IMG/VR virus record: IMGVR_UViG_3300005265_000549
Span: 25,202 to 89,201 of that record
Length of the DNA stretch: 64,000 bases
From: a virus
Reading direction: 5' to 3' (one strand)
In this document: piece by piece, positions 28,450 through 47,587 of the stretch
How positions within the stretch are numbered: the stretch's first letter is position 1
Layout of the letters: each line of letters opens with the position of its first letter
Translations under genes and position numbers: made by a program
The notes under the pieces: generated by a model
Told to the model about the DNA's origin: nothing
What the model saw: the letters and a program-made list of their open reading frames with translations, nothing else
The model's database searches: none

Positions 28450-30174
28450 TTATGAATTATATTTAAATATAAAATTTCCACAATCCCATATTCTATCATA
28501 TCCATTTTGTTGCATATTTTCCCATTCAGTTAAATTTACATCAAAATTTTCTGATTTATTTTTCAATTTATGTTTCATATAATTAGCTCTATGTTCTAAT
28601 TCTATATAATTTTTAGTATACCAATAATTAGGAAGACTTTCATGTGAATATTTAAATCCTAATTTATAATACAATTTTCCTATGCTAAATCTTTTATCTG
28701 CATAGGTAATAATTTCTTGATTTTTCCAGAAATTATTTAAAAAATGTTTAAACAATCTAGAAGCAGAACCTATTACATTAGTATTTATCAAATTACAAAA
28801 TCTTATTAATTCAAAAGAAGTTTTTCCTGTAATTCGTCTACTACCAAAAGTCATCAAAGAAACTAATTTATTATCATAATATAAACCTAGTCTAATACTA
28901 GAATTATCTTTTCCTTGAAGATGATTATTATTTAGAAAATCATTTTTTTCTTTTCTTTTTACTTCTTTAATAATACATTTTCTTGCATAAATTTTATTAG
29001 GTGTTTTTCCTAATTTATTTTTAATAATAGATTTAATTATATCTTGTTTATTATTCCATTCAGAATCAAAGATATGAATTAAATCTATTCCTAATTGTTC
29101 TTTTGCTTGTTCAGTTTTCCATAGGTGGTAATTTCTATCTTTACTACCTGATAATTCTGTGTGATAATAAATACCATCACACTCAATTCCTAAATTATAA
29201 GAAGGAATTAATATATCTATTTCTAAATTACCTTTATTTCCAGATTGTGTGAAATCTTTAATAGGTTTTGTATTATTAATTGTTTCTATATTTAATGAAT
29301 GAATAAAAAAACAAACTTCTTCTTCAAAATTAGATTTAGTAAAACATTTTGGACATGAAAAATTTTTTCTATTACTTATATAATTTAATCTAAATATATT
29401 ACCACATTTATTATGTTTTATATTAAAATATCCTGTATTAACATATTCTTCTTTATTTGTTAATACTTTAAATATTTTTTTTTCTTCTATATCATTTTTA
29501 TAATTTTTATAATTATTATTTCTATCTTTAATTCGTTTTATATTTTCTTTATTAATTGTACCACATGATTTAGAACAAACACCCGAATATCCATTTTTTA
29601 ATCCATTAAAATTTTGATTTTTAATTCCACAGACTTTACATTTAGGTATTTCTTTCAAATCATTTATTATAATATAACACTTTTCAATTAATGTATTTCC
29701 TGGATATTCATAAATTGCTCTTAAAAGATTTGGATTTTTTTTAAATAAAGAATATTTTAAATTAGGAATATCTAAAAGTAGTAAAATTTCTTGAACTTTC
29801 AATTTTATATTTTTAATTTCTGAGTATTTTATTTCAAATATTTCTTTATCTGATACTACATTATTGGGCTTATGACCTTTTATTCTAAATCCTTTATATT
29901 TATTATCTTTACCAGTGCATTTTCTTGAACAATAAATAGCATATCCAAGTCTTTTATTTCCACCAAAAGAAACTTTTTTTCTACAAACTTTACATCTTGG
30001 AATTTCAGTAATATTAAAAAAATAATTATAACATTGTTGACTTATAGAAATATCACCAAAATTATATTGTGTATTATATAATTTAATCTTTTCATATATT
30101 TTTAAAGAACGAATTATTTTTGAAAATTGTCTTGGTTTTTCAAATCTTAATTTTAAATATTCTTGTTTTGTCAT
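28450..30174 (-). mobile_element. Free-standing Hef-like homing endonuclease (Zn-ribbon repeats + PD-(D/E)XK + GNAT-like C-terminal domain)
   Basis: Repeated PRCKVC...YCS..C units; EIDI.IP...GIECDGIYYH, HIFDSEW, IYARKC, NHLQG, ELIRFC, YADKRFS and RIWDCG. Inserted between sheath and tube genes. Confidence 0.8.
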
Positions 30175-35462: not shown

Positions 35463-36254
35463 TTAATTTAGTGATGTTACAAATTGTCCAGCTAAAAATT
35501 TAACATCATCATTTAATCCTACAGCTTGATCGACTACATTCGTATTATCATACATCAACATATTACCGGCATTTAAATCATCACATAATGCTGTTGCAAC
35601 AATAGTTCCCCAAGAACCAGAAGGTGTATTAAATTGAATGTTTGTATTATTATTCAATGTTCCAGTTGTTGCAGTTGACCAATCTGAAAAAGCTTTTCTA
35701 GCATAGTTATTTCCAGCAGGATCTGAAACTGTTGATCCTGTATCTGAATCTGAAACAGTAGCGGTAACCAATGCAACATAAATTGATGGTTGTGCATAAG
35801 ATGTATTTTTGAACATAAATTCTAATAATGCATTTGCTAAATAATCTGACATTCCTGTTCCAGAACCAGCATTTACACTAATAACAACTTCACCAGATGC
35901 AATTGATGGGGTACTATTAACAACGACATTAATATCATTATTTAATGAACCATAAGCTAACATATTACCACCTGAAGAAGCATCAAATATAGCATAATAA
36001 CCATATGTTTCATCTCCAGAAGTAGATTTTGGAAAAGTAACTGTTCCAGATTGTGTTATTGCTCTTGATGCTGCTGCGCCAAATGTAATAGCTTTTCTTG
36101 TATAAGAACCATACGTTGCTTCAGTCCATCCTGAAGCATCTTCACCAGCATCTGTAGAACTTAATGCAACATAAACAGTAGAAACTTGTGAATAAGAAGT
36201 ATTCCCAAAAATATGATTTAAGATTGCATTTTCTGCATAATTTGTTAAACTCAT
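35463..36254 (-). CDS. Virion fibre/decoration protein with a tandemly duplicated domain
   Basis: Two copies of (M)S.Y..NA.L...F....YVAL...Y.RKA...F...GN.L.Y. Confidence 0.7.
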   Translation of the reverse strand: MSLTNYAENAILNHIFGNTSYSQVSTVYVALSSTDAGEDASGWTEATYGSYTRKAITFGAAASRAITQSGTVTFPKSTSGDETYGYYAIFDASSGGNMLAYGSLNNDINVVVNSTPSIASGEVVISVNAGSGTGMSDYLANALLEFMFKNTSYAQPSIYVALVTATVSDSDTGSTVSDPAGNNYARKAFSDWSTATTGTLNNNTNIQFNTPSGSWGTIVATALCDDLNAGNMLMYDNTNVVDQAVGLNDDVKFLAGQFVTSLN

Positions 36255-36262
36255 TTTTTACC

Positions 36263-38965
36263 TCATTTTTGAATATTGATTACTATTAGTGGGAAATCTT
36301 TTTCCTCACTTACATTTTCAATTTTTTGTTTATAATCAATTAATTTTTCTAATTTAAAATTAATACTCTCATTATTTATCAAACTAAAATATTCTTTATT
36401 TATTTTTCGTTTTTCACTAACATTTTCTAATTTTCTAAAAATAGTTTTATTTATTTTTTGTTTATCAAGAACTTCATAATAATTTTTCTCTAGAGGAATT
36501 CTTAATAATTTTGTGAATATACTATTATTATTTATATGTCTGAAAATTGAAACATTTTCAATTTTTGAAAAATCAGAAATATTTTTAATTCTTGTTTTAA
36601 GTATTTCACCTAAATAATCCCATAATAAAATAATATCATTATTAATAAATTCTAATTCATTAATATTAGATAAAAATTCTCTATAACAAAAAATATCAAT
36701 ATTTGAAAAATCAAAATTAACATTAATACTATTTTCAAATGTTTTTGTAATTATCGCATTGATTACATCAATGACAATATTATTATTTATATTATTTAGT
36801 AATTCAGAAATTTTAAATATTTGAATATCTGAAATATTTAAACTATTTAATTTATTAAATTCTAATAATCTTTCAATCGAAATAACAATATTATCATTAA
36901 TATTAAATTCAATATCATTAACACTATTAAATTCTCTATCTATATTAATTAATAATGATGATACATTAATATTATTATTAATATTTGAATTTATTGCCCA
37001 ATAATTATATAAATTAAAAGTATTTAAATTAAATTGTAATTCTAATTGACTTAATAAATTTCTTTCAATTGAAACAATAATAATATTATTATTATTAAAT
37101 TCATTTTCAATATTAGAAATTATTTCTCTATCAACAGTAATATCAACATTTGTAATATCTAAAATTGAAGTTGCTTCACAAGAAAATTTATGAAGATTTT
37201 TAACTTCAATATCTTTTGAAGTAACAATATTATCTATTGTTGAAATTAATAATCTTTCATTTGAAACAATACTATTTGAAAGACTAATTATATTTTCAAC
37301 TTCAAATTTTCTTCTACTATGTTTTATTTCCCGTAAAACAACTGCTGCTGCATCTGAAGTAACAAAATATCCTAATGCTGGTTGAAGAAGAAGTTCTCTA
37401 TTATTAAGATATCTTATAACAAATGCATCAACAATATTTGTTTCTGTATTGATTTGAATATTTGCATTGAAAAATCTATCAGTAACTTCAATTGCATTAA
37501 CAATATTTGTTTCTGTATTGATTTGAATATTTGCATTTAATTCAATATTTCTAGAAACTATTACAATACTATTTGATAATGAAGTTTCTATTGAAATATT
37601 TGAATTAAAAAATCTTTCAGTAACTGAAATTGCTTCAATATCTGATGCATCAATATTATTTTCAATGAATGCTACAAGTGGAATACCTGTAATTTCTGAT
37701 GCTTTAATATCATTAACATTAAATTCTATTTGAATATTAGAAGTTAATGCTTTTTCTTGTGCAATATAAATTTCTGAACATATAAATGAAGAATTTATTT
37801 CACAACTATAAGTTGAAGCAATATTAACATCACTACAAATAAATAATTCTTCGTGTCCTGGATAAAATACTTCATTTGGAAAAATTCTTTCACCAGGATA
37901 TTTACTTTTTAATATATCTGCTTTTAAGAAAACATCTTTAACACTTTTAGCATCAATATCTGTAACTGTTATTTCATTATTAATTGTTGCTGATAATGAA
38001 TTTTCTAATGAAACATCTATATTATTATTAATAACAGTATGTCTAATTGTTGAACGTAAATTTATATCAGTAACTTCAATTGCATTAATTTTAGAACAAA
38101 CAAATTGATCTTGTAAACCAGGATAAAAACCATTATTAGGATAACTATTATTTGTTGGATAATCTTGTCTAAAAATATTAGCTTTAAATTGTCTAATATT
38201 TGTTAATGAAATATCAGTTATAGAATAACAATTTTCAATAAATGCTACAAGTGGAATACCTGTTATTTCAACTGCTTCAATATTTGAAAGATTTATTACT
38301 GATTGAATATTTGTATTAAAATCAGTAATAAAATAAAATTCAATATTTGAATTTATAAAATTAGTAAGAATATTAGTTCTTAAACTTGTTTCTGTGACTT
38401 CTTGAACATCTAAATTAGAAGTTATAAAATCATTGACAATATTTGAAATAAAATAATAATTATTTCTACAAAGTACTAGTGATATATCAAAATCATTTTT
38501 GATATCAGCAATTAATGGAATTATATTTTCAGCTATTGGAACTGATAATTTAACTGTATGTCTGATTATTGAACGTAAAGTTCTTTCAGTAGATTCAATT
38601 GCTTTAGCTGATGAACAAACAAATTGATCTCTTAAACCAGGATAAAAATCATTATTAGGTAAATTTGATACTTTTGGATAAGTTTGTTTATGAATATCAG
38701 CAGCTAATAATCTTTCAACTGAAATACTAATTTCAGAATTATCAATAGTATTTTCAATAAATGAATTAAATAATATTCCTTGTTCTACTTCTACTTTTAT
38801 TTCATTATTATCAATAACACTTTCAATATTTGCTTCATAATAAAAATGTTTAATTAAATCAATATTAGAACAAGTTGTATTAATATCTAAATTAGTTCTA
38901 AAGGCTGAAATACCAACTATTTGTGGTTCAACGTCTGAAGTTTGTGTATTAACAGGAATATTTGC
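36263..38965 (-). CDS. Hidden C-terminal segment (900 codons, no Met) of the giant fibre gene, in the -1 frame relative to ORF 38917..45462
   Basis: Translated by hand: ANIPVNTQTSDVEPQ...AADIHKQTYPKVSNLPNNDFYPGLRDQFVCS...PLIVINIQK-TGA with no internal stop. Same repeat family as the upstream ORF. Confidence 0.85.
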   Translation of the reverse strand, partial: ANIPVNTQTSDVEPQIVGISAFRTNLDINTTCSNIDLIKHFYYEANIESVIDNNEIKVEVEQGILFNSFIENTIDNSEISISVERLLAADIHKQTYPKVSNLPNNDFYPGLRDQFVCSSAKAIESTERTLRSIIRHTVKLSVPIAENIIPLIADIKNDFDISLVLCRNNYYFISNIVNDFITSNLDVQEVTETSLRTNILTNFINSNIEFYFITDFNTNIQSVINLSNIEAVEITGIPLVAFIENCYSITDISLTNIRQFKANIFRQDYPTNNSYPNNGFYPGLQDQFVCSKINAIEVTDINLRSTIRHTVINNNIDVSLENSLSATINNEITVTDIDAKSVKDVFLKADILKSKYPGERIFPNEVFYPGHEELFICSDVNIASTYSCEINSSFICSEIYIAQEKALTSNIQIEFNVNDIKASEITGIPLVAFIENNIDASDIEAISVTERFFNSNISIETSLSNSIVIVSRNIELNANIQINTETNIVNAIEVTDRFFNANIQINTETNIVDAFVIRYLNNRELLLQPALGYFVTSDAAAVVLREIKHSRRKFEVENIISLSNSIVSNERLLISTIDNIVTSKDIEVKNLHKFSCEATSILDITNVDITVDREIISNIENEFNNNNIIIVSIERNLLSQLELQFNLNTFNLYNYWAINSNINNNINVSSLLINIDREFNSVNDIEFNINDNIVISIERLLEFNKLNSLNISDIQIFKISELLNNINNNIVIDVINAIITKTFENSINVNFDFSNIDIFCYREFLSNINELEFINNDIILLWDYLGEILKTRIKNISDFSKIENVSIFRHINNNSIFTKLLRIPLEKNYYEVLDKQKINKTIFRKLENVSEKRKINKEYFSLINNESINFKLEKLIDYKQKIENVSEEKDFPLIVINIQK

Positions 38966-41900
38966 TTAGCAGTAAATTCTCTTTCAACTTTAAAATTTAT
39001 TATTGAATTATAAACAGTATGTCTAATTATTGAAATAATTTCATGATCAATATCAACAAACATATCAATTTTAGATGTTATGTATTGATCAGCAATTCCT
39101 GGATAAATTAAATTTCCTGGATAATAATCATTTTCTGGATATACTTGTTTAAAAATATCAGCTACAAAAGGAATAACTTTATAACAAATTACATTTGTGA
39201 TTTCTGTAGTAACAGGAATATTTGTAACTAATTCAATTTTATGAAATGAAGTTGCTATCGCATCTGATAAACTAAAATCTAAAGAAATATCAGAAACTAT
39301 TTCAATTGCTCCAGCTCCAGTAACATCAATATCTGTAATTTCTGTATTAACAGGAATATTTGCAATTAAATCTTTATGAATTATTGCATCAATATCTGTA
39401 ATTTCTGTATTAACAGGAATATTTGCAACTAAATCTCTAGAAATTATTCGTTCAACATCAATATCTGTAATTTCTGTATTAACAGGAATATTTGTAATTA
39501 AATCTCTTTCATTATCAACAGTAATTAATTCTATATCAGAAATTATTGAAATGTTTGCTGATAAACCAATTCCTGTAATTTCAAAAACAGTAATATCTGA
39601 ACAAACAAATTGATCTGGAAAACCAGGATAAAATGTATCTGAAGGATATATTATTGTTCCAGGATATAATTGTTTAAAAATATTTGATCTAAATTCACGT
39701 TTGACAGCAAATATTGTATCTGATAAATTAAAATTATTATTAATTGAAGATGAAAATTCTCTAGCTACTGAACAATCTAAATCTCCTAAATAAAATGTTC
39801 CAAGAGAATTAGCTGTAAAAGTCAATGATGTAGTTTCTGTAGCTTCGATTTCTGAAACATCAAATTCAATACTAATATCAGTTTCTAATTCTCTATCAAC
39901 TTCAATATCAACATTAGAAGTTTTTGAAGTATGAATAACTTCTGAACTTAATGGTCTATCAGTAACTTCTATAGCATTAATATCTGAAGTTTGTGTAGTA
40001 AATGAAATATTTGTTGATAAATTATGTTCAACATTAGAAATAGGATTATTTAAACTAAATTCTAGTTGTATATTTGCATTTAATGTTTTTTCAGTAACTT
40101 CAATAGCATCAATTTTAGATAATACAAATTGATCTGAAATACCAGGATAAAAAGTTATTCCAGGATAACTACTATCATTTGGAAAAAGTTGTCTAAATAT
40201 ATCTGCTCTGAAATCACGTTCATTATAAAAAATTGCGTTTGATAGTGAAAAATTACATAAATTATTTTCACTTAAATCACGTTCGACACTAGAAATAAAA
40301 TTATTTAAATTAAATTCTGATTGAATATTTGCACTAAATTCTCTATCATTATCAACTATTGGATTGGCTAAAGAAAATACAATAGGAATATTAGAGGTAA
40401 TATCTCTTTGAAATAAAATTTCATCAATATTTGAAGTTTGTGTAGTAAATGAAATATTTGCTTCAAATTCATGATTTAAACCTAAATAAAAATTTTCAAC
40501 ATTAAAATCAATTGAAATTTGTGCAGTAAGACTAATTCCAGTAGTTTCTAAAGCTGTAACATTTGAACAAACAAATTGATCAGCTATTCCAGGAAATACT
40601 TGTTCACCTGGATAATAATCATTTTCTGGATATACTTGTCTAAATATATCTGCTTTTAAATCTCTTTCAACTATTCCTTGAATATCTGTAGAATCAATAT
40701 TAATAGGAATAGAAGTATTAAATTCTCTATCTATATCAACTATTGGATCAGTTAAATTAATAACATTTTGAATATTAGAACTAAATTCTCTATCTATATC
40801 AACGATTGGATCAGTTAAATTAATAACATTTTCAATTGATGTTGATAATTCTCTAATTATATCTAAATCAACATTTGTAATTTCTGTATTAACAGGAATA
40901 TTTGCAACTAAATCTCTATGTACTAATGACTCAATATTTGTAATTTGAGAAGTAAATGGTTGATTAGCTAATAATTCACGGACTCCATAAAATATTGTGT
41001 CATTAGTTGAAAAAGAAATATTAATATTTGAAGATAATTCTCTGATAGTAATTTCAACAATATCAATTTTAGATAATACAAATTGATCTGAAATGCCAGG
41101 ATAAACCCCATTTCCAGGATAAAATGTAGTATTTGGATATAATTGTCTAAATATATCTGCTCTGAAATTTCTTTCAATAATTAATTCAATATCAGAAATT
41201 TCAGAAATATTTATAATTGAAGCAGATAATTCTCTATCTATATCAACTATTGGATTAGTGAAATCAATATCATTAGAAATTGTAGCAGATAATTCTCTTA
41301 AAACAGTAGAGTCAACATTTGTAATTTCTGTATTAACAGGAATGTTTGATTCTAATTCTCTTAAAACAGTAGAGTCAACATTTGTAATTTCTGTATTAAC
41401 AGGAATGTTTGATTCTAATTCTCTTAAAACGGTAGAGTCAATATCTGTTATAGAAGAAATAACAGGAATGTTTGATTCTAAAGATCTAACAATATAAAAA
41501 ATTGAATTATTAGTTAAAGTTGAATTACTTATATTACTAGATAATTCTCTATCTATATCAACTATTGGATTAGTTAAATTAATAACATTTTGAATATTTG
41601 AAATTAAATCACGTTCAACAGTAGAATCAACATTAGTAATTTGATAAGTCGTAGATATATTATTATCTAATGATCTTACAACATGAAAAATTGCATCATT
41701 AGTTAGAGTTGAAGCACTAATATCAGCTTCAAAAGTAATAACAGTAATTTCAATAATATCAATTTTAGATAATACAAATTGATCAGATATACCAGGGTGG
41801 ACACCATCTCCTGGATAAAAATTTGAGGAAGGATAGAGTTGACGATAAATATCAGCTCTTAAATCACGTTCATTATAAAAAATTGCATCTGAAATTGATA

Positions 41901-44900
41901 GATTAACTGATAAAGTAGCTAATAAATCTCTTTCAGCTTTAACATTAATATCATTTGTTTGAGAAATTAAACTTATATTTGTTGATAATTCTCTTACTGA
42001 TGACAAATCAATAACTGAATTAGAATATACAATTGAAATTGAAGATACTAAATCTCTTTGAACTTTAGAATCAATATCAGTTAATGAAGAAACAAATGGT
42101 AAATTTGTTTCTAAATCTCTTTGAACTTTAGAATCAATATCAGTTAATGAAGAAACAAATGGTAAATTTGAACTTAATTCACGTTCAGCTTTTATATTAA
42201 TAATATTTAAAGAATCTGGTAATCTATTTGATGAATGAAATTTATTAGATATTATATTATCAGTAGGACAAATATTTGAATAATAAAGCTCGTCGAAAAG
42301 AAGGGAGTTTCCATAAGATTTACGACGTGCCATTTCTAACTTACCATCACCAGCATAAGTGAAATAATTATCTCCCAAAGATGAGCCGTCGAATTCCAAT
42401 ACACCATTAACATACATTTTAGGATTACCGCCATTTTTCCAGGTAATATCTATTGTATATTCAGTATTGGCAGAATAATTAATAAAACCACCCACATAAG
42501 ATCCATTTGCTGCTAAAGCCATACCAATATCCCGCATCACAGCGTGTAATTGTAAGGTTGTCCCCTGACAAATCGTACATAATGTTCCATTCGTATACCC
42601 ATCATGGTCTGTCATTTCCTTTTCAGAATTAACCACAAAATGTACATGACCATCTTTGGTTAGATCAAGATCAGTCTGGTAATTCAACTTCCCAGCAGAC
42701 CGTGAACCATCGACAAAGGAAGTTGAGAAGGATTTTTTTTCGAGTTGAACCCCGTCAACATATATAATAGCGCTTTTAGCACAAGGTATGCTTCCACGAA
42801 GCCTTAAAGCAAACTCAATATTTGTTTCATTTGAGGTTGTAAAAATAGTTTCCAGTCTTTCAAATTTTGAATTGTCTCCACTAGAATAAGCACTCCAATG
42901 AGTTATGTACCCTCCGTCATAATATTCAATAATTTCAAGTTTAACATTCTCGGATGTTTTTACATAAGCAGTAAAAGCATAAGTTGTGTCAACAGTGGCG
43001 GAAATTTTACTGGCTGGGGAAGCAATCGTCGCAAAAAAGTTATCAGCTTCCGAAGCATCAGTCGTAATCTTAACTGAATAATCTCCAAATTTACTTGTTT
43101 CATTTGTCCGAACTATTGAGCAACGATAACTTCCCTCCCAATCATCTAAATTAATTTCTACAGAAGGATTTGATGCCAAATTCTCTGTCGCTTCCTCAAC
43201 CGCTACCGCACCACCAAACTTACCCTCATCAGGACGCATGGTAACAAGATATCCAGGCTCTGGAGTTATTGTTTTATCTACAGAAGTTAAACTATTTTTT
43301 TTATTTAATTCTTCATCATATTCATAAAATTGAAAATCATCAAAATATATTGTATTAGTTCCTGTTCCATAATTAGGAAGAGTCATAAATACAATATATT
43401 CAGTTCCTCTACGAAATTTATTATATACTGGTTGTTGATTATATAAATTAACACCTTCAATAATTCCAGAATAATTAGTCCATTCTATTGGAGCAATCAT
43501 ATTAGAAGCTAAATTATAATTATAAGATGCACCTGATGAAGAATTTCCAATTTCAGTACCTTTAGAAAATGATGCTCCAACAGTATATCCACTATATAAA
43601 GTAATTTTCCAAATATCTTTTGATGAAGTTGTTGTTTTAGTATAAGGATATAATGTTGAACCTTCAGTTACTTGTTGACCCCAAAGATATAATCCAGAAG
43701 AACCATCACCTTGATAAGAATTTGAACCACTTACTCTTATATGATTATGAAGATTTAAAATTGTTGCATCAGATCCAGTTGTTATTGGAACAGAACATCT
43801 ATACCAACCACTACCAACAGATTCAATTGCTACTCCAGAACTACCTGTACAGGTTCCATTCGTTAAATCAAAATAACCATTAACAGATACTCTTGTTGAA
43901 TTATTATCATAATAATAAAAAGCTAAAGTATCTCTTTCTCCTTTTTTAGCATATACTGACATATTATAAGTAGTGCTTGAAGAAATACTAATATCGGTTT
44001 GATAAGTATAATGATAATTGTCATCAGAATTTTCAACTAATTTATCTGCAGTAGTCGTTCCATCTGGTGCAGTTATCGCATTTGCAGAAATTGAAGCATA
44101 ACCACAATGATTTGGAGAAGTATCAAAAGCTTCACTTTGTAAAGCAATATTTGTTATAGTTTCTATTGAATCAGAATCTGAAGAAATTCTTAAAGTTTTA
44201 TCTGGTAATTCATGATCATCTTCAGTAGGATTAAATTGAATAAATGAATTTGAAACAGCAAACCAATTTTCACTTGCTGGTTCAACATAAACAATATTAT
44301 CACTAGAAGTAACATCAGCAGCTAAAGTTGTATCTTTATCAGGATCTCTCCAACATGCAGCATAAGAAATAGTATTTTTATTTTTATCTAAACATTTAAA
44401 ACCTAAATAAATTTTAGCACTATCGCTAATAGATTTTATAGCTACTTCTTCTTTATATTTTTTTTCTATACAAACATTTATTGGAATATCAGAAAAATTA
44501 CTATTTGTAGATGTAACTTTAACACAACCTAATTCTTTAAAACCTTCAGTTCCATCATATACAAAACTAGAAAAATTTGTATTATTTTTATATTCTAAAT
44601 TTCCATTATAAAATAAATTATCTTTATCAAATCTAAATAATTTTTCTTTAATAGAAGAAATATTAATTTCATTAATAAGTTTTCTTATTAAATTAGCTTG
44701 AATATCTTTACCAGTTGGTATATCTAATCTTGAAGGGCCAGCAAATATTTCTTTTATTTTATTATCTGTTGGACAATAAATACTATAATAAAGCTCATCG
44801 AAAAGGACAGAATTAACACATTGACCAACATATCTACCCATTTCTAACTTACCATCACCAGCATAGGTAAAATAATCATCACCTAAAGAACTACCATCAT

Positions 44901-45462
44901 ATTTTAATTCACCATCAACATATAATTTAGGATTACCACCATTTTTCCAAGTGACATCTATTGTGTAATCAATACTTTTTGTAAAAGATTGAATATAATG
45001 ACTTGAACCTTTTACTATTAAATATAAACCACTTTGATACATCCAAATATCTAACTGACGTGTGGTTCCCCGTCCGATAGTACACAAAGCACCACTATAA
45101 TAACTAATATGATCTGTTGGATTTTTATGAGAATTAACCACAAAATGCACATGACCATCTTCAGTCAAATCAAGATCAGTCTGGTAATCCAATGCTCCGG
45201 GAGCAGTAACTTCTACAACTTCAATATTATCGTAATAAACAGTATTATCAACTGAACTAACTGTTGAATATAAATAAACTCTTGCTTGAGTCGTTCCAGC
45301 AGGCATAGTCACGATAATTTCTAATTCTTGCCACGATCCATTACCTTCTCTAGAAATTGTATGACTTGATGGTGTTGTCTGGTCTCTAAGATTTATATAA
45401 GCATAATTTCCAGATTCTGCAAAAAAATTAACTTTAAGTCTATAAGTTTTATTTTCACTCAC
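38917..45462 (-). CDS. Giant fibre/spike protein, middle segment (CBM-like and LamG-like modules, then ~21-aa beta repeats)
   Basis: GKFGGAVAVEE, NPSVE..QLEK..FSTSF, duplicated YQTDLDLT...LFDELYYS module and R.L..NIPVNTEIT repeats. The GTG start is in frame with the upstream ORF. Confidence 0.8.
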   Translation of the reverse strand: MSENKTYRLKVNFFAESGNYAYINLRDQTTPSSHTISREGNGSWQELEIIVTMPAGTTQARVYLYSTVSSVDNTVYYDNIEVVEVTAPGALDYQTDLDLTEDGHVHFVVNSHKNPTDHISYYSGALCTIGRGTTRQLDIWMYQSGLYLIVKGSSHYIQSFTKSIDYTIDVTWKNGGNPKLYVDGELKYDGSSLGDDYFTYAGDGKLEMGRYVGQCVNSVLFDELYYSIYCPTDNKIKEIFAGPSRLDIPTGKDIQANLIRKLINEINISSIKEKLFRFDKDNLFYNGNLEYKNNTNFSSFVYDGTEGFKELGCVKVTSTNSNFSDIPINVCIEKKYKEEVAIKSISDSAKIYLGFKCLDKNKNTISYAACWRDPDKDTTLAADVTSSDNIVYVEPASENWFAVSNSFIQFNPTEDDHELPDKTLRISSDSDSIETITNIALQSEAFDTSPNHCGYASISANAITAPDGTTTADKLVENSDDNYHYTYQTDISISSSTTYNMSVYAKKGERDTLAFYYYDNNSTRVSVNGYFDLTNGTCTGSSGVAIESVGSGWYRCSVPITTGSDATILNLHNHIRVSGSNSYQGDGSSGLYLWGQQVTEGSTLYPYTKTTTSSKDIWKITLYSGYTVGASFSKGTEIGNSSSGASYNYNLASNMIAPIEWTNYSGIIEGVNLYNQQPVYNKFRRGTEYIVFMTLPNYGTGTNTIYFDDFQFYEYDEELNKKNSLTSVDKTITPEPGYLVTMRPDEGKFGGAVAVEEATENLASNPSVEINLDDWEGSYRCSIVRTNETSKFGDYSVKITTDASEADNFFATIASPASKISATVDTTYAFTAYVKTSENVKLEIIEYYDGGYITHWSAYSSGDNSKFERLETIFTTSNETNIEFALRLRGSIPCAKSAIIYVDGVQLEKKSFSTSFVDGSRSAGKLNYQTDLDLTKDGHVHFVVNSEKEMTDHDGYTNGTLCTICQGTTLQLHAVMRDIGMALAANGSYVGGFINYSANTEYTIDITWKNGGNPKMYVNGVLEFDGSSLGDNYFTYAGDGKLEMARRKSYGNSLLFDELYYSNICPTDNIISNKFHSSNRLPDSLNIINIKAERELSSNLPFVSSLTDIDSKVQRDLETNLPFVSSLTDIDSKVQRDLVSSISIVYSNSVIDLSSVRELSTNISLISQTNDINVKAERDLLATLSVNLSISDAIFYNERDLRADIYRQLYPSSNFYPGDGVHPGISDQFVLSKIDIIEITVITFEADISASTLTNDAIFHVVRSLDNNISTTYQITNVDSTVERDLISNIQNVINLTNPIVDIDRELSSNISNSTLTNNSIFYIVRSLESNIPVISSITDIDSTVLRELESNIPVNTEITNVDSTVLRELESNIPVNTEITNVDSTVLRELSATISNDIDFTNPIVDIDRELSASIINISEISDIELIIERNFRADIFRQLYPNTTFYPGNGVYPGISDQFVLSKIDIVEITIRELSSNINISFSTNDTIFYGVRELLANQPFTSQITNIESLVHRDLVANIPVNTEITNVDLDIIRELSTSIENVINLTDPIVDIDREFSSNIQNVINLTDPIVDIDREFNTSIPINIDSTDIQGIVERDLKADIFRQVYPENDYYPGEQVFPGIADQFVCSNVTALETTGISLTAQISIDFNVENFYLGLNHEFEANISFTTQTSNIDEILFQRDITSNIPIVFSLANPIVDNDREFSANIQSEFNLNNFISSVERDLSENNLCNFSLSNAIFYNERDFRADIFRQLFPNDSSYPGITFYPGISDQFVLSKIDAIEVTEKTLNANIQLEFSLNNPISNVEHNLSTNISFTTQTSDINAIEVTDRPLSSEVIHTSKTSNVDIEVDRELETDISIEFDVSEIEATETTSLTFTANSLGTFYLGDLDCSVAREFSSSINNNFNLSDTIFAVKREFRSNIFKQLYPGTIIYPSDTFYPGFPDQFVCSDITVFEITGIGLSANISIISDIELITVDNERDLITNIPVNTEITDIDVERIISRDLVANIPVNTEITDIDAIIHKDLIANIPVNTEITDIDVTGAGAIEIVSDISLDFSLSDAIATSFHKIELVTNIPVTTEITNVICYKVIPFVADIFKQVYPENDYYPGNLIYPGIADQYITSKIDMFVDIDHEIISIIRHTVYNSIINFKVEREFTAKQIFLLIHKLQTLNHK
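41290..41480. repeat. 63-bp tandem repeat (about 3 copies) encoding RELESNIPVNTEITNVDSTVL
   Basis: Unit starts at 41290, 41353 and 41416. Confidence 0.85.
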
Positions 45463-45480
45463 GGTGAAAGTTTGGGTAAG

Positions 45481-46368
45481 TCAACCAGCGCCTGAATTCA
45501 CACCATCTTGAACCATTTTATGCGAATATGTTCCATATTTTGATTTATCGGATACTACTGAATGAGTTGCATATGTAGAATTACAATTCCAACTCCATCC
45601 GGTTTCATCACCATCCTCAAATCCTGGATTTGTTGCTACTTTATTATCACTTCCAATAGTAGTAAATGAATTTGACCATTTACATTTTTCTAATTGCCAT
45701 TCTGAAATTGTTATTGAACCAGTAGCATCAGTAGCATCATTAAAATAAGCAAGTAAAGCAATACTTACTGTGTCATCATATACATTGAAACTATTATATT
45801 CAAATCTTTCTAAATAATCTTCAGAAGCATCTGCTTTTAAAATTGATTTTGTTAAATATCCTGCTGAAGATCCTTCAGAGTTAATAAATCTAATTGCAAA
45901 AGTAATTTTAGTAGCATCAGCAGGCCAACTATTAACTTTATATTTTCCAGAAAATGAAATTAATTCACCTGGTACTAATTCATTAGATAAATATCCAGAA
46001 ACTGATGTTGATAAATAATACCAATCATCAATAGAAGAAAAAGTTGCTGAACCATCACCATTTAAGGTAATATAATTAGAACGCCAACCAGTACCTGCTG
46101 AAAAATCAACTGAAAAATCAGCAACTAATTTATTACAATGTGATTCTTCAACTGCTACCGCTCCACCAAATTTTCCATCATCTCTAAGAGTAGTCACAGA
46201 ACCAGAAAGTGGTTCTGTTAAACCATCAGTTGATTTTAAATCAACATCAAATCTAAATAATTTAGGTTGTACTGTATCTGATTTTATATTTGCTGAAAAC
46301 AAATATGTTGCTACATCAGGATATTGACCATTATCTGGATATAAAGAATTTTTTGGATATAGACTCAT
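45481..46368 (-). CDS. Giant fibre/spike protein, N-terminal segment, ending at an in-frame TGA
   Basis: MSLYPKNSLYPDNGQYP, FRFD and DGKFGGAVAVEE. The CBM-like NPGFEDG domain is cut mid-domain by TGA. GATAAATA at 46405-46412. Confidence 0.8.
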   Translation of the reverse strand: MSLYPKNSLYPDNGQYPDVATYLFSANIKSDTVQPKLFRFDVDLKSTDGLTEPLSGSVTTLRDDGKFGGAVAVEESHCNKLVADFSVDFSAGTGWRSNYITLNGDGSATFSSIDDWYYLSTSVSGYLSNELVPGELISFSGKYKVNSWPADATKITFAIRFINSEGSSAGYLTKSILKADASEDYLERFEYNSFNVYDDTVSIALLAYFNDATDATGSITISEWQLEKCKWSNSFTTIGSDNKVATNPGFEDGDETGWSWNCNSTYATHSVVSDKSKYGTYSHKMVQDGVNSGAG

Positions 46369-46422
46369 ATATTGATTTTAATACCTGTATTTAAATTTAT
46401 AAAGTATTTATCGATATATTAT

Positions 46423-46818
46423 TTAATTTAATCTAAACCATTGAAGATTTTTATTTATAATAAAAATTGTTATATCATATTTATTTGCTACAGACATCAA
46501 TAAATTAATAAAATGATAATCTTTCTCAAAATCTTCTATTATCAATAAAACTGCTGGTTTTTTTCCTGTGTTAATAGCGTAACTTAATGATTGACCAATT
46601 GATTCAGCCCATTTACTTGCAAAATCAACTTCAACAGCATATTGTTCAGTTAAACAATCAACTCTTGTTCTATTTGATAATACATATTCACATTGACCAT
46701 TATTTTGATCACACCACGCCTTTTGATAATATTTTTCAAGATGTAAATGTTTAGCTTCAACATTAATACTAAAAAATAAAATAAATAAAATTGTTATTAA
46801 AATAAAAATTTTTTTCAT
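46423..46818 (-). CDS. Signal-peptide-bearing protein with a PD-(D/E)XK-like fold
   Basis: MKKIFILITILFILFFSINVEA leader; RVDCLT..YAVEVDFA.KWAESIGQSL.YA. Confidence 0.55.
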   Translation of the reverse strand: MKKIFILITILFILFFSINVEAKHLHLEKYYQKAWCDQNNGQCEYVLSNRTRVDCLTEQYAVEVDFASKWAESIGQSLSYAINTGKKPAVLLIIEDFEKDYHFINLLMSVANKYDITIFIINKNLQWFRLN

Positions 46819-47071: not shown

Positions 47072-47587
47072 TTATATTTCCTCCATTAATTTATTAAATT
47101 CATCCATATTTTTAATAATTCTTAAAGGTTTTAACCAAGAAGAAGAGACACAATAACTTGGATCAATTTTATATGTTTTGACTGTATTATTAAATAATTG
47201 ATAATTTTTATTTAAATTACAATCATCAGTAACTTGATGTGAACAAAACCATTTTTTAGGATCATCTTTCCAAAGAAATCTTGTCATAAAATTAAATCCA
47301 GCTAAAGCACGCCAATCATATTTACAACCTACTTTTTCTTCAGCTCTTCTCCAAACTTGTCTATGATATTCTTGAGGATATTGTAAAGATAATAATAAAA
47401 CTTCTGTACCTTTTTTATGATCATCCCATAGAGTTTTAAAAAATTGAACTCCTCCTTTTAATCTAGATTCAATTGAATGACCCTTTTCATTTATTAAAGC
47501 AACATGAGAAAACTTTCCCCAAGTTTCTAATTTAATCGCTTTTGAAGTCCATTTTTTTCCTTTATAAGCACCAACAAAAATTTTCAT
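47072..47587 (-). CDS. Permuted papain-like (NlpC/P60, YiiX-like) enzyme
   Basis: FSHVAL...G.KYDW...KWFCS, with His before Cys. Confidence 0.75.
   Translation of the reverse strand: MKIFVGAYKGKKWTSKAIKLETWGKFSHVALINEKGHSIESRLKGGVQFFKTLWDDHKKGTEVLLLSLQYPQEYHRQVWRRAEEKVGCKYDWRALAGFNFMTRFLWKDDPKKWFCSHQVTDDCNLNKNYQLFNNTVKTYKIDPSYCVSSSWLKPLRIIKNMDEFNKLMEEI

Follow-up and report, generated by a model that had tools for sequence, protein, structure and literature searches.

Programmed −1 frameshifting in phage tail genes is known from the G/GT type of phage lambda, and the long tail fibres of T4-like myoviruses (e.g. gp34–gp37) are encoded by four genes. Here we analyse a giant gene for a putative tail fibre that resembles both in some respects and that lies on the minus strand of the IMG/VR virus record IMGVR_UViG_3300005265_000549, a contig of 89,201 bases. 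The window, by which we mean the whole stretch of DNA that was analysed, comprises 64,000 nucleotides (nt; bases 25202–89201 of the contig) and has a G+C content of 24%; all positions below are those of the window. As it stands in this contig, the gene is broken by an apparent frameshift at 38966/38965, behind which a further 900 codons remain open. Comparison with contigs from four metagenome runs and with four other assemblies of the protein indicated that 64 nt are missing from this contig at the break, and the frameshift most likely does not reflect real biology. We put the probability that it is an assembly error of this contig, and that the gene is continuous, at roughly 0.7. The parts of the gene are as follows (proteins with P-numbers are listed further below).

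36263–38965, minus strand: C-terminal 900 codons and TGA of the giant tail-fibre gene, recognised by the open frame and by identity to other assemblies.
38965–38966, minus strand: site where the contig is without the 64 nt, as seen from run contigs, the rebuilt frame and the P0003, P0004, P0006 and P0007 peptides.
38917–38967, minus strand: probably spurious 16-codon tail KQIFLLIHKLQTLNHK and TAG of the 2181-residue gene call, a tail found in P0005 only.
38968–45480, minus strand: upstream part of the gene, with carbohydrate-binding module (CBM) and LamG-like globular domains followed by 21- to 23-residue stalk repeats with YP loops, as judged from the translation, the match to PHROG 5939 and the 63-nt tandem arrays.
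39955–39981, minus strand: 27-nt repeat copy (INAIEVTDR) similar to the central part of the 64 missing nt, from which it differs once (I to K).
45481–45483, minus strand: in-frame TGA with a 295-codon open reading frame (ORF) before it and the giant ORF behind it, the same in each of the four runs.
45484–46368, minus strand: N-terminal 295-codon ORF, which shares its frame with the giant ORF.

The open frame behind the break

The stop-to-stop frame that runs from 38965 to 36263 on the minus strand contains 900 sense codons and is closed by the TGA at 36263–36265. By codon count neither ATG nor GTG occurs in frame, and TTG occurs once, at codon 862 (36382); because the frame lacks ATG and GTG it shows up as a gap of ~2.6–2.7 kb in the ORF track. 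We estimate from base composition that ~9% of random codons would be stops at 24% G+C, and 900 open codons are therefore not a product of chance. The hidden frame keeps the 21- to 23-residue repeats and the YP-rich loops of the upstream ORF, which bears out the description given in the initial annotation of this stretch. Over its last ~1000 residues the upstream ORF has only one methionine, and the lack of methionine is a property of the stalk, or shaft, repeats.

Relative to the upstream ORF the hidden frame is offset by −1/+2. The upstream ORF has 2181 amino acids (aa) from the GTG at 45462, and 2483 codons only with readthrough of the in-frame TGA at 45481. In the contig the junction codons are AGA GAA TTT ACT GCT AAG CAA ATA TTC CTG; the upstream frame continues past the junction as REFTA-KQIFLLIHKLQTLNHK-stop, that is, for 16 codons before the TAG at 38917, and the hidden frame opens with ANIPVNTQ right behind the TAA at 38968–38966. 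The two frames overlap by 49 nt. A script scan of 38985–38905 in the zero frame found no slippery heptamer of the form X XXY YYZ in this overlap, as the initial annotation had also stated, and the overlap likewise has no homopolymer (at least six A/T or at least five G/C) and no simple-sequence tract.

Sixty-four nucleotides present in every other data set

Parts of this stretch are present in eight public sequencing runs from three studies, three of which hold at least 85% of the sampled words; no RNA data are among the public runs listed for it. We compared window positions 36000–46500 with the Logan contigs of four runs from two studies, the evidence thus consisting of contigs, which drop rare variants, and not of raw reads. 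Run X1 is from marine sediment (2017) and is flagged as the possible source sample, X3 is from a different sample of the same study, and X2 and X4 are from a hydrothermal vent (2023) and a separate study. Each of the four runs has a contig over 37508–38965 that reads 64 extra bases before it continues at 38966, and the depth of this contig (16, 21.5, 20.7 and 6.2 in X1–X4, respectively) equals that of the flanks. The direct joint of 38965 to 38966 was found in none of the contigs listed for the four runs, contigs being a form of data in which rare variants are lost, and the exact pattern of 38966–39005 had no match in viral and metagenome contigs, a set that may exclude records near the window's own. 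On the plus strand the 64 nt consist of AGTAAAGAA, then 27 nt like 39955–39981, then TGTTGAAACAAATAAATTACTTGGAATA (9 + 27 + 28). The 28-nt piece is absent throughout the 89-kb record, and the 64 nt are therefore not misplaced sequence.

Over the 10.5-kb stretch that was compared, X1 equals the window save for the 64 nt and three low-depth substitution sites, which argues that the window's strain carries the 64 nt as its main form. X3 contains a divergent strain with several dozen single-nucleotide polymorphisms (SNPs) over the same stretch, whereas the other runs are nearly identical to the window. Within the hidden frame the X3 SNPs comprise four synonymous changes, six non-synonymous changes and no stops, a number too small to measure selection. 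The Logan contigs break up in the repeat region of the gene. One and the same 24% G+C myovirus has thus been recovered from marine-sediment metagenomes of 2017 and, by a separate study, from hydrothermal-vent metagenomes of 2023.

When the 64 nt were inserted by script, a single open frame was obtained that extends from the ATG at 46368 to the TGA at 36263, with the TGA at codon 296 as the sole internal stop. The phase follows from simple arithmetic: the two nucleotides AA (38967–38966) and the 64 nt make 66 nt, or 22 codons, and GCA at 38965 begins the next codon. The rebuilt gene encodes 3087 aa from the GTG at 45462, or spans 3389 codons from the ATG at 46368 with the TGA passed; these figures, together with the 2181 aa (2483 codons only with TGA readthrough) of the broken form, replace the fibre lengths of about 2,480 and 3,370 aa in the initial annotation. 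The rebuilt junction, ...VEREFTANIPSNLFVSTINA(I/K)EVTDRFFTANIPVNTQTSDVE..., reads VEREFTANIPSNLFVSTINAKEVTDRFFTANIPVNTQ, which is one further unit of the repeat R-x-(L/F)-x-x-N-I-P, and the further 23-residue unit at the junction of the real protein is NIPSNLFVSTINAKEVTDRFFTA.

The break lies in repeated DNA. The fibre gene is dense in 63-nt tandem arrays and dispersed repeats, with in-frame units that are 63 or 69 nt long; the sequence TTTACTGC(T/A)AATATTCC occurs twice, at a distance of 69 nt and with the junction between the copies, and the missing piece holds a 27-nt copy of 39955–39981. What the contig omits is one 69-nt unit minus 5 nt. The lesion is thus a 64-nt omission, and neither a duplicated k-mer overlap nor a single-base insertion or deletion. 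The initial annotation had proposed that 5 nt (GCTAA) were inserted here, having noted that their removal restores REFTANIP. Both this restoration and the repeat register across the break hold, and deleting 5 nt restored the register because the omission equals a 69-nt unit minus 5 nt; the lesion itself is of the other kind, as the run contigs and four of the five proteins listed below indicate.

Other assemblies were compared at the protein level, the evidence at the level of DNA coming from the run contigs. A search among longer proteins returned a protein of 3086 aa with 100% identity over the first 400 hidden residues, and the 90%-identity cluster to which it belongs has five members:

P0007, 3087 aa, JGI/IMG, on a 42,398-base contig.
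P0003, 3086 aa, ENA, on a 104,384-base contig.
P0006, 3022 aa, ENA, on a 65,001-base contig.
P0004, 1208 aa, ENA, on two contigs of up to 139,980 bases.
P0005, 2181 aa, JGI/IMG, on the 89,201-base contig, the window's own gene call.

P0003, P0004, P0006 and P0007 read VEREFTANIPSNLFVSTINAKEVTDRFFTANIPVNTQ straight across the junction, and the break, with its tail KQIFLLIHKLQTLNHK, occurs in one of the five members, P0005. The hidden 900 residues are identical to the C-terminal 900 of P0007 and P0004, and also to those of P0006 except for one 23-residue repeat unit that P0006 lacks, a result that upholds the initial annotation in its view that the fibre gene goes on, without decay, in the hidden frame. 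Between P0007 and the rebuilt protein there are three residue differences in addition to the I/K position inside the insert, for which stretch the rebuild borrowed the window's own repeat copy. One of the three, I463T, corresponds to a SNP in run X3, which makes P0007 a representative of the X3-like strain and the window one of the X1-like strain. The call for P0004 begins at an internal TTG (39825), which implies a break upstream in the P0004 contigs, and P0006 is without three units, of 21, 21 and 23 residues, each an in-frame loss. P0003 carries a replaced patch at residues ~925–1050, within the second LamG-like module. Such differences between assemblies may reflect real length or mosaic variation, or more assembly trouble.

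Explanations for the break

All other data sets contain the 64 nt, with which both the frame and the repeat pattern are restored. We infer that these nucleotides were left out by the assembler, rather than being absent from a minority of phage genomes. In this explanation the phage would have one continuous tail-fibre gene ending at 36263, the apparent frameshift at 38966/38965 would result from the omission of 64 nt from this IMG/VR contig, and the omission would most likely have arisen during short-read assembly across the many 63- to 69-nt repeats of the gene. Some points weigh against an assembly error. Microhomology at the junction is zero and the junction is 5 nt out of repeat register, neither of which is typical of de Bruijn repeat collapse; the comparison was made on contigs, which drop rare variants; and X1 is flagged only as the possible source sample. 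The same two properties of the joint fit a non-homologous deletion better than k-mer collapse, and an undecayed downstream frame is what would be expected of a very recent deletion. Thus the 64-nt deletion could be real but rare, with a minority of genomes in the source sample encoding a truncated 2181-aa fibre (a recent loss of function) and the assembler having taken that path. We regard this as unlikely, though far from negligible: the direct junction is in no listed contig of the four runs, the 64-nt form is at full flank depth in the likely source run, the truncated protein is found on only one contig among five assemblies, and assemblers normally take the majority path. We are likewise doubtful that the sediment sample truly holds the form without the 64 nt as a minority allele, such that 2181-aa fibres lacking the last ~920 residues occur alongside 3087-aa fibres. 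Were this so, it would mean, together with the in-frame unit losses of P0006, that fibre length varies in the wild.

Programmed recoding by a ribosomal frameshift (−1/+2), or phase variation in which the fibre alternates between two lengths, had been offered in the initial annotation beside a recent insertion and an assembly error. Two long overlapping frames in a tail gene do resemble known phage frameshifts, and an overlap of 49 nt would permit a −1 shift. The overlap, however, is without an X XXY YYZ heptamer, homopolymer or simple-sequence tract, and the break is not conserved, as neither the four runs nor the four other assemblies of this phage show it; the long protein therefore needs no shift at this position. 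Changes by units of 63 or 69 nt, moreover, are in frame and unable to switch phase. We thus consider recoding or phase variation highly improbable. An insertion of GCTAA into an otherwise intact gene, attractive in that its removal yields REFTANIP, is just as improbable, since every other data set has 64 more bases here, not 5 fewer. Among the explanations originally offered it is therefore the assembly error that we favour, whereas recoding and phase variation are not needed for a break that is specific to one contig.

If the break is an assembly error, this IMG/VR contig is wrongly annotated with a 2181-aa gene, and the gap in the ORF track is where a fibre gene of ~3,100–3,400 codons, among the longest structural genes of phages, has its last 900 codons. 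A false recoding candidate would thereby be removed, leaving the in-frame TGA inside a carbohydrate-binding domain as the gene's one reproducible interruption. More generally, when an undecayed frame is found behind a frameshift in a repeat-rich gene of metagenomic origin, other assemblies should be compared before recoding is proposed.

The in-frame TGA, the fibre protein and its setting

Unlike the frameshift, the TGA at 45481–45483 is a real, conserved interruption. It stands in the minus-strand context GGT TGA CTT, between two ORFs that share one frame (the 295-codon ORF and the giant ORF), and none of the four runs shows a change in it, the divergent strain of X3 included. The 295-aa product that ends at the TGA (P0009) is identical on five contigs from four sources, and P0011, a protein with a different N-terminus, terminates at exactly the same residue. 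Residues 243–368 of the read-through protein (P0008) match the Pfam domain CBM_4_9 (PF02018) with 28.6 bits, against a gathering cut-off of 25.9, over profile positions 2–131 of 136; searched singly, the halves of the domain on either side of the TGA gave no Pfam match. More than 70 library proteins align unbroken across the TGA position, with a varying residue aligned to the TGA itself. For 160 residues across the TGA (window 45181–45660, minus strand), AlphaFold2 predicted one beta-sandwich with a predicted local distance difference test score (pLDDT) of 89.9; of its strands, four precede the TGA and seven follow it. The nearest solved folds of this model are CBM16, CBM4, CBM22 and CBM61 modules and phage tailspike modules, and a PDB sequence search with the read-through N-terminal part gave no match. 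No Shine–Dalgarno-like motif precedes the GTG at 45462, the start chosen by gene callers; such a motif is present in 18 of 24 neighbouring genes. UGA readthrough, or two chains that jointly complete one domain, are candidate explanations for the TGA. We rejected the use of genetic code 4 (TGA as tryptophan) throughout the phage: only one gene in the 64 kb merges, other TGA-ended ORFs gain few codons, and tryptophan is encoded by TGG. No tRNA or suppressor genes were found within the window.

The tail protein of ~3,100 residues consists of globular, sugar-binding-type modules over its first ~1,080 residues and of a methionine-poor, repetitive shaft over the remaining ~2,000, the hidden 900 included. 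It matches phrog_5939 ('tail protein', E = 1.3e-23) over no more than residues 437–614 of P0007, and Pfam gave no match for either half of the gene. Its gene position and domain content suggest that it acts as a host-binding fibre. For the hidden 900 residues we found no relatives in IMG/VR by peptide patterns, no match in 50,697 phage records by tblastn and no relatives among proteins of 495–1575 aa; matches in the ESM Atlas were to unnamed viral clusters only, all with scores below 0.9. From these sequence comparisons, the shaft thus appears to have relatives only within this phage population. AlphaFold2, run on 420 shaft residues as a single sequence, gave an unusable model with a pLDDT of 31.

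The minus strand from 23 to 64 kb holds a myovirus structural module, with PHROG matches to a large terminase, tail sheath, head-closure and adaptor proteins, baseplate wedge subunits and tail proteins. The neighbours of the fibre gene are baseplate wedge, sheath, neck and gp80-like fibre proteins, among them a protein with a Pfam Gp80 'fiber I' domain at 35463–36254, immediately downstream of the hidden frame. The module also contains, directly downstream of the tail sheath gene, an inserted 574-aa HNH or homing endonuclease (PHROG 3339/559; 28450–30174, minus strand). At 47072–47587 on the minus strand lies a 171-aa tail-module protein that matches PHROG 1128 'enoyl-CoA hydratase/carnithine racemase-like' (E = 1.9e-16), a fold family that is unexpected amid structural genes. 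CheckV estimates the completeness of the 89,201-base contig at 48%, and no end repeats were found on it. Since the fibre gene is also present on contigs of up to 139,980 bases, genomes more complete than the 89-kb record exist.

Set beside the G/GT genes of lambda, this locus shares two overlapping frames in a gene of the tail module and a downstream frame without a start of its own; it differs in that there is no slippery heptamer, the break varies even within the same phage population, and the long form is encoded directly elsewhere. The likeness to the long tail fibres of T4-like phages lies in the myovirus tail/baseplate module (sheath, baseplate wedge), the PHROG 'tail protein' match and the long repetitive shaft, and the carbohydrate-binding modules of the protein resemble those of phage tailspikes. 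Unlike the T4-like fibres, however, the fibre described here is encoded by one gene of ~3,100–3,400 codons, not four, with its globular sugar-binding domains placed N-terminally and a C-terminal 900 residues that have no match to isolated phages.

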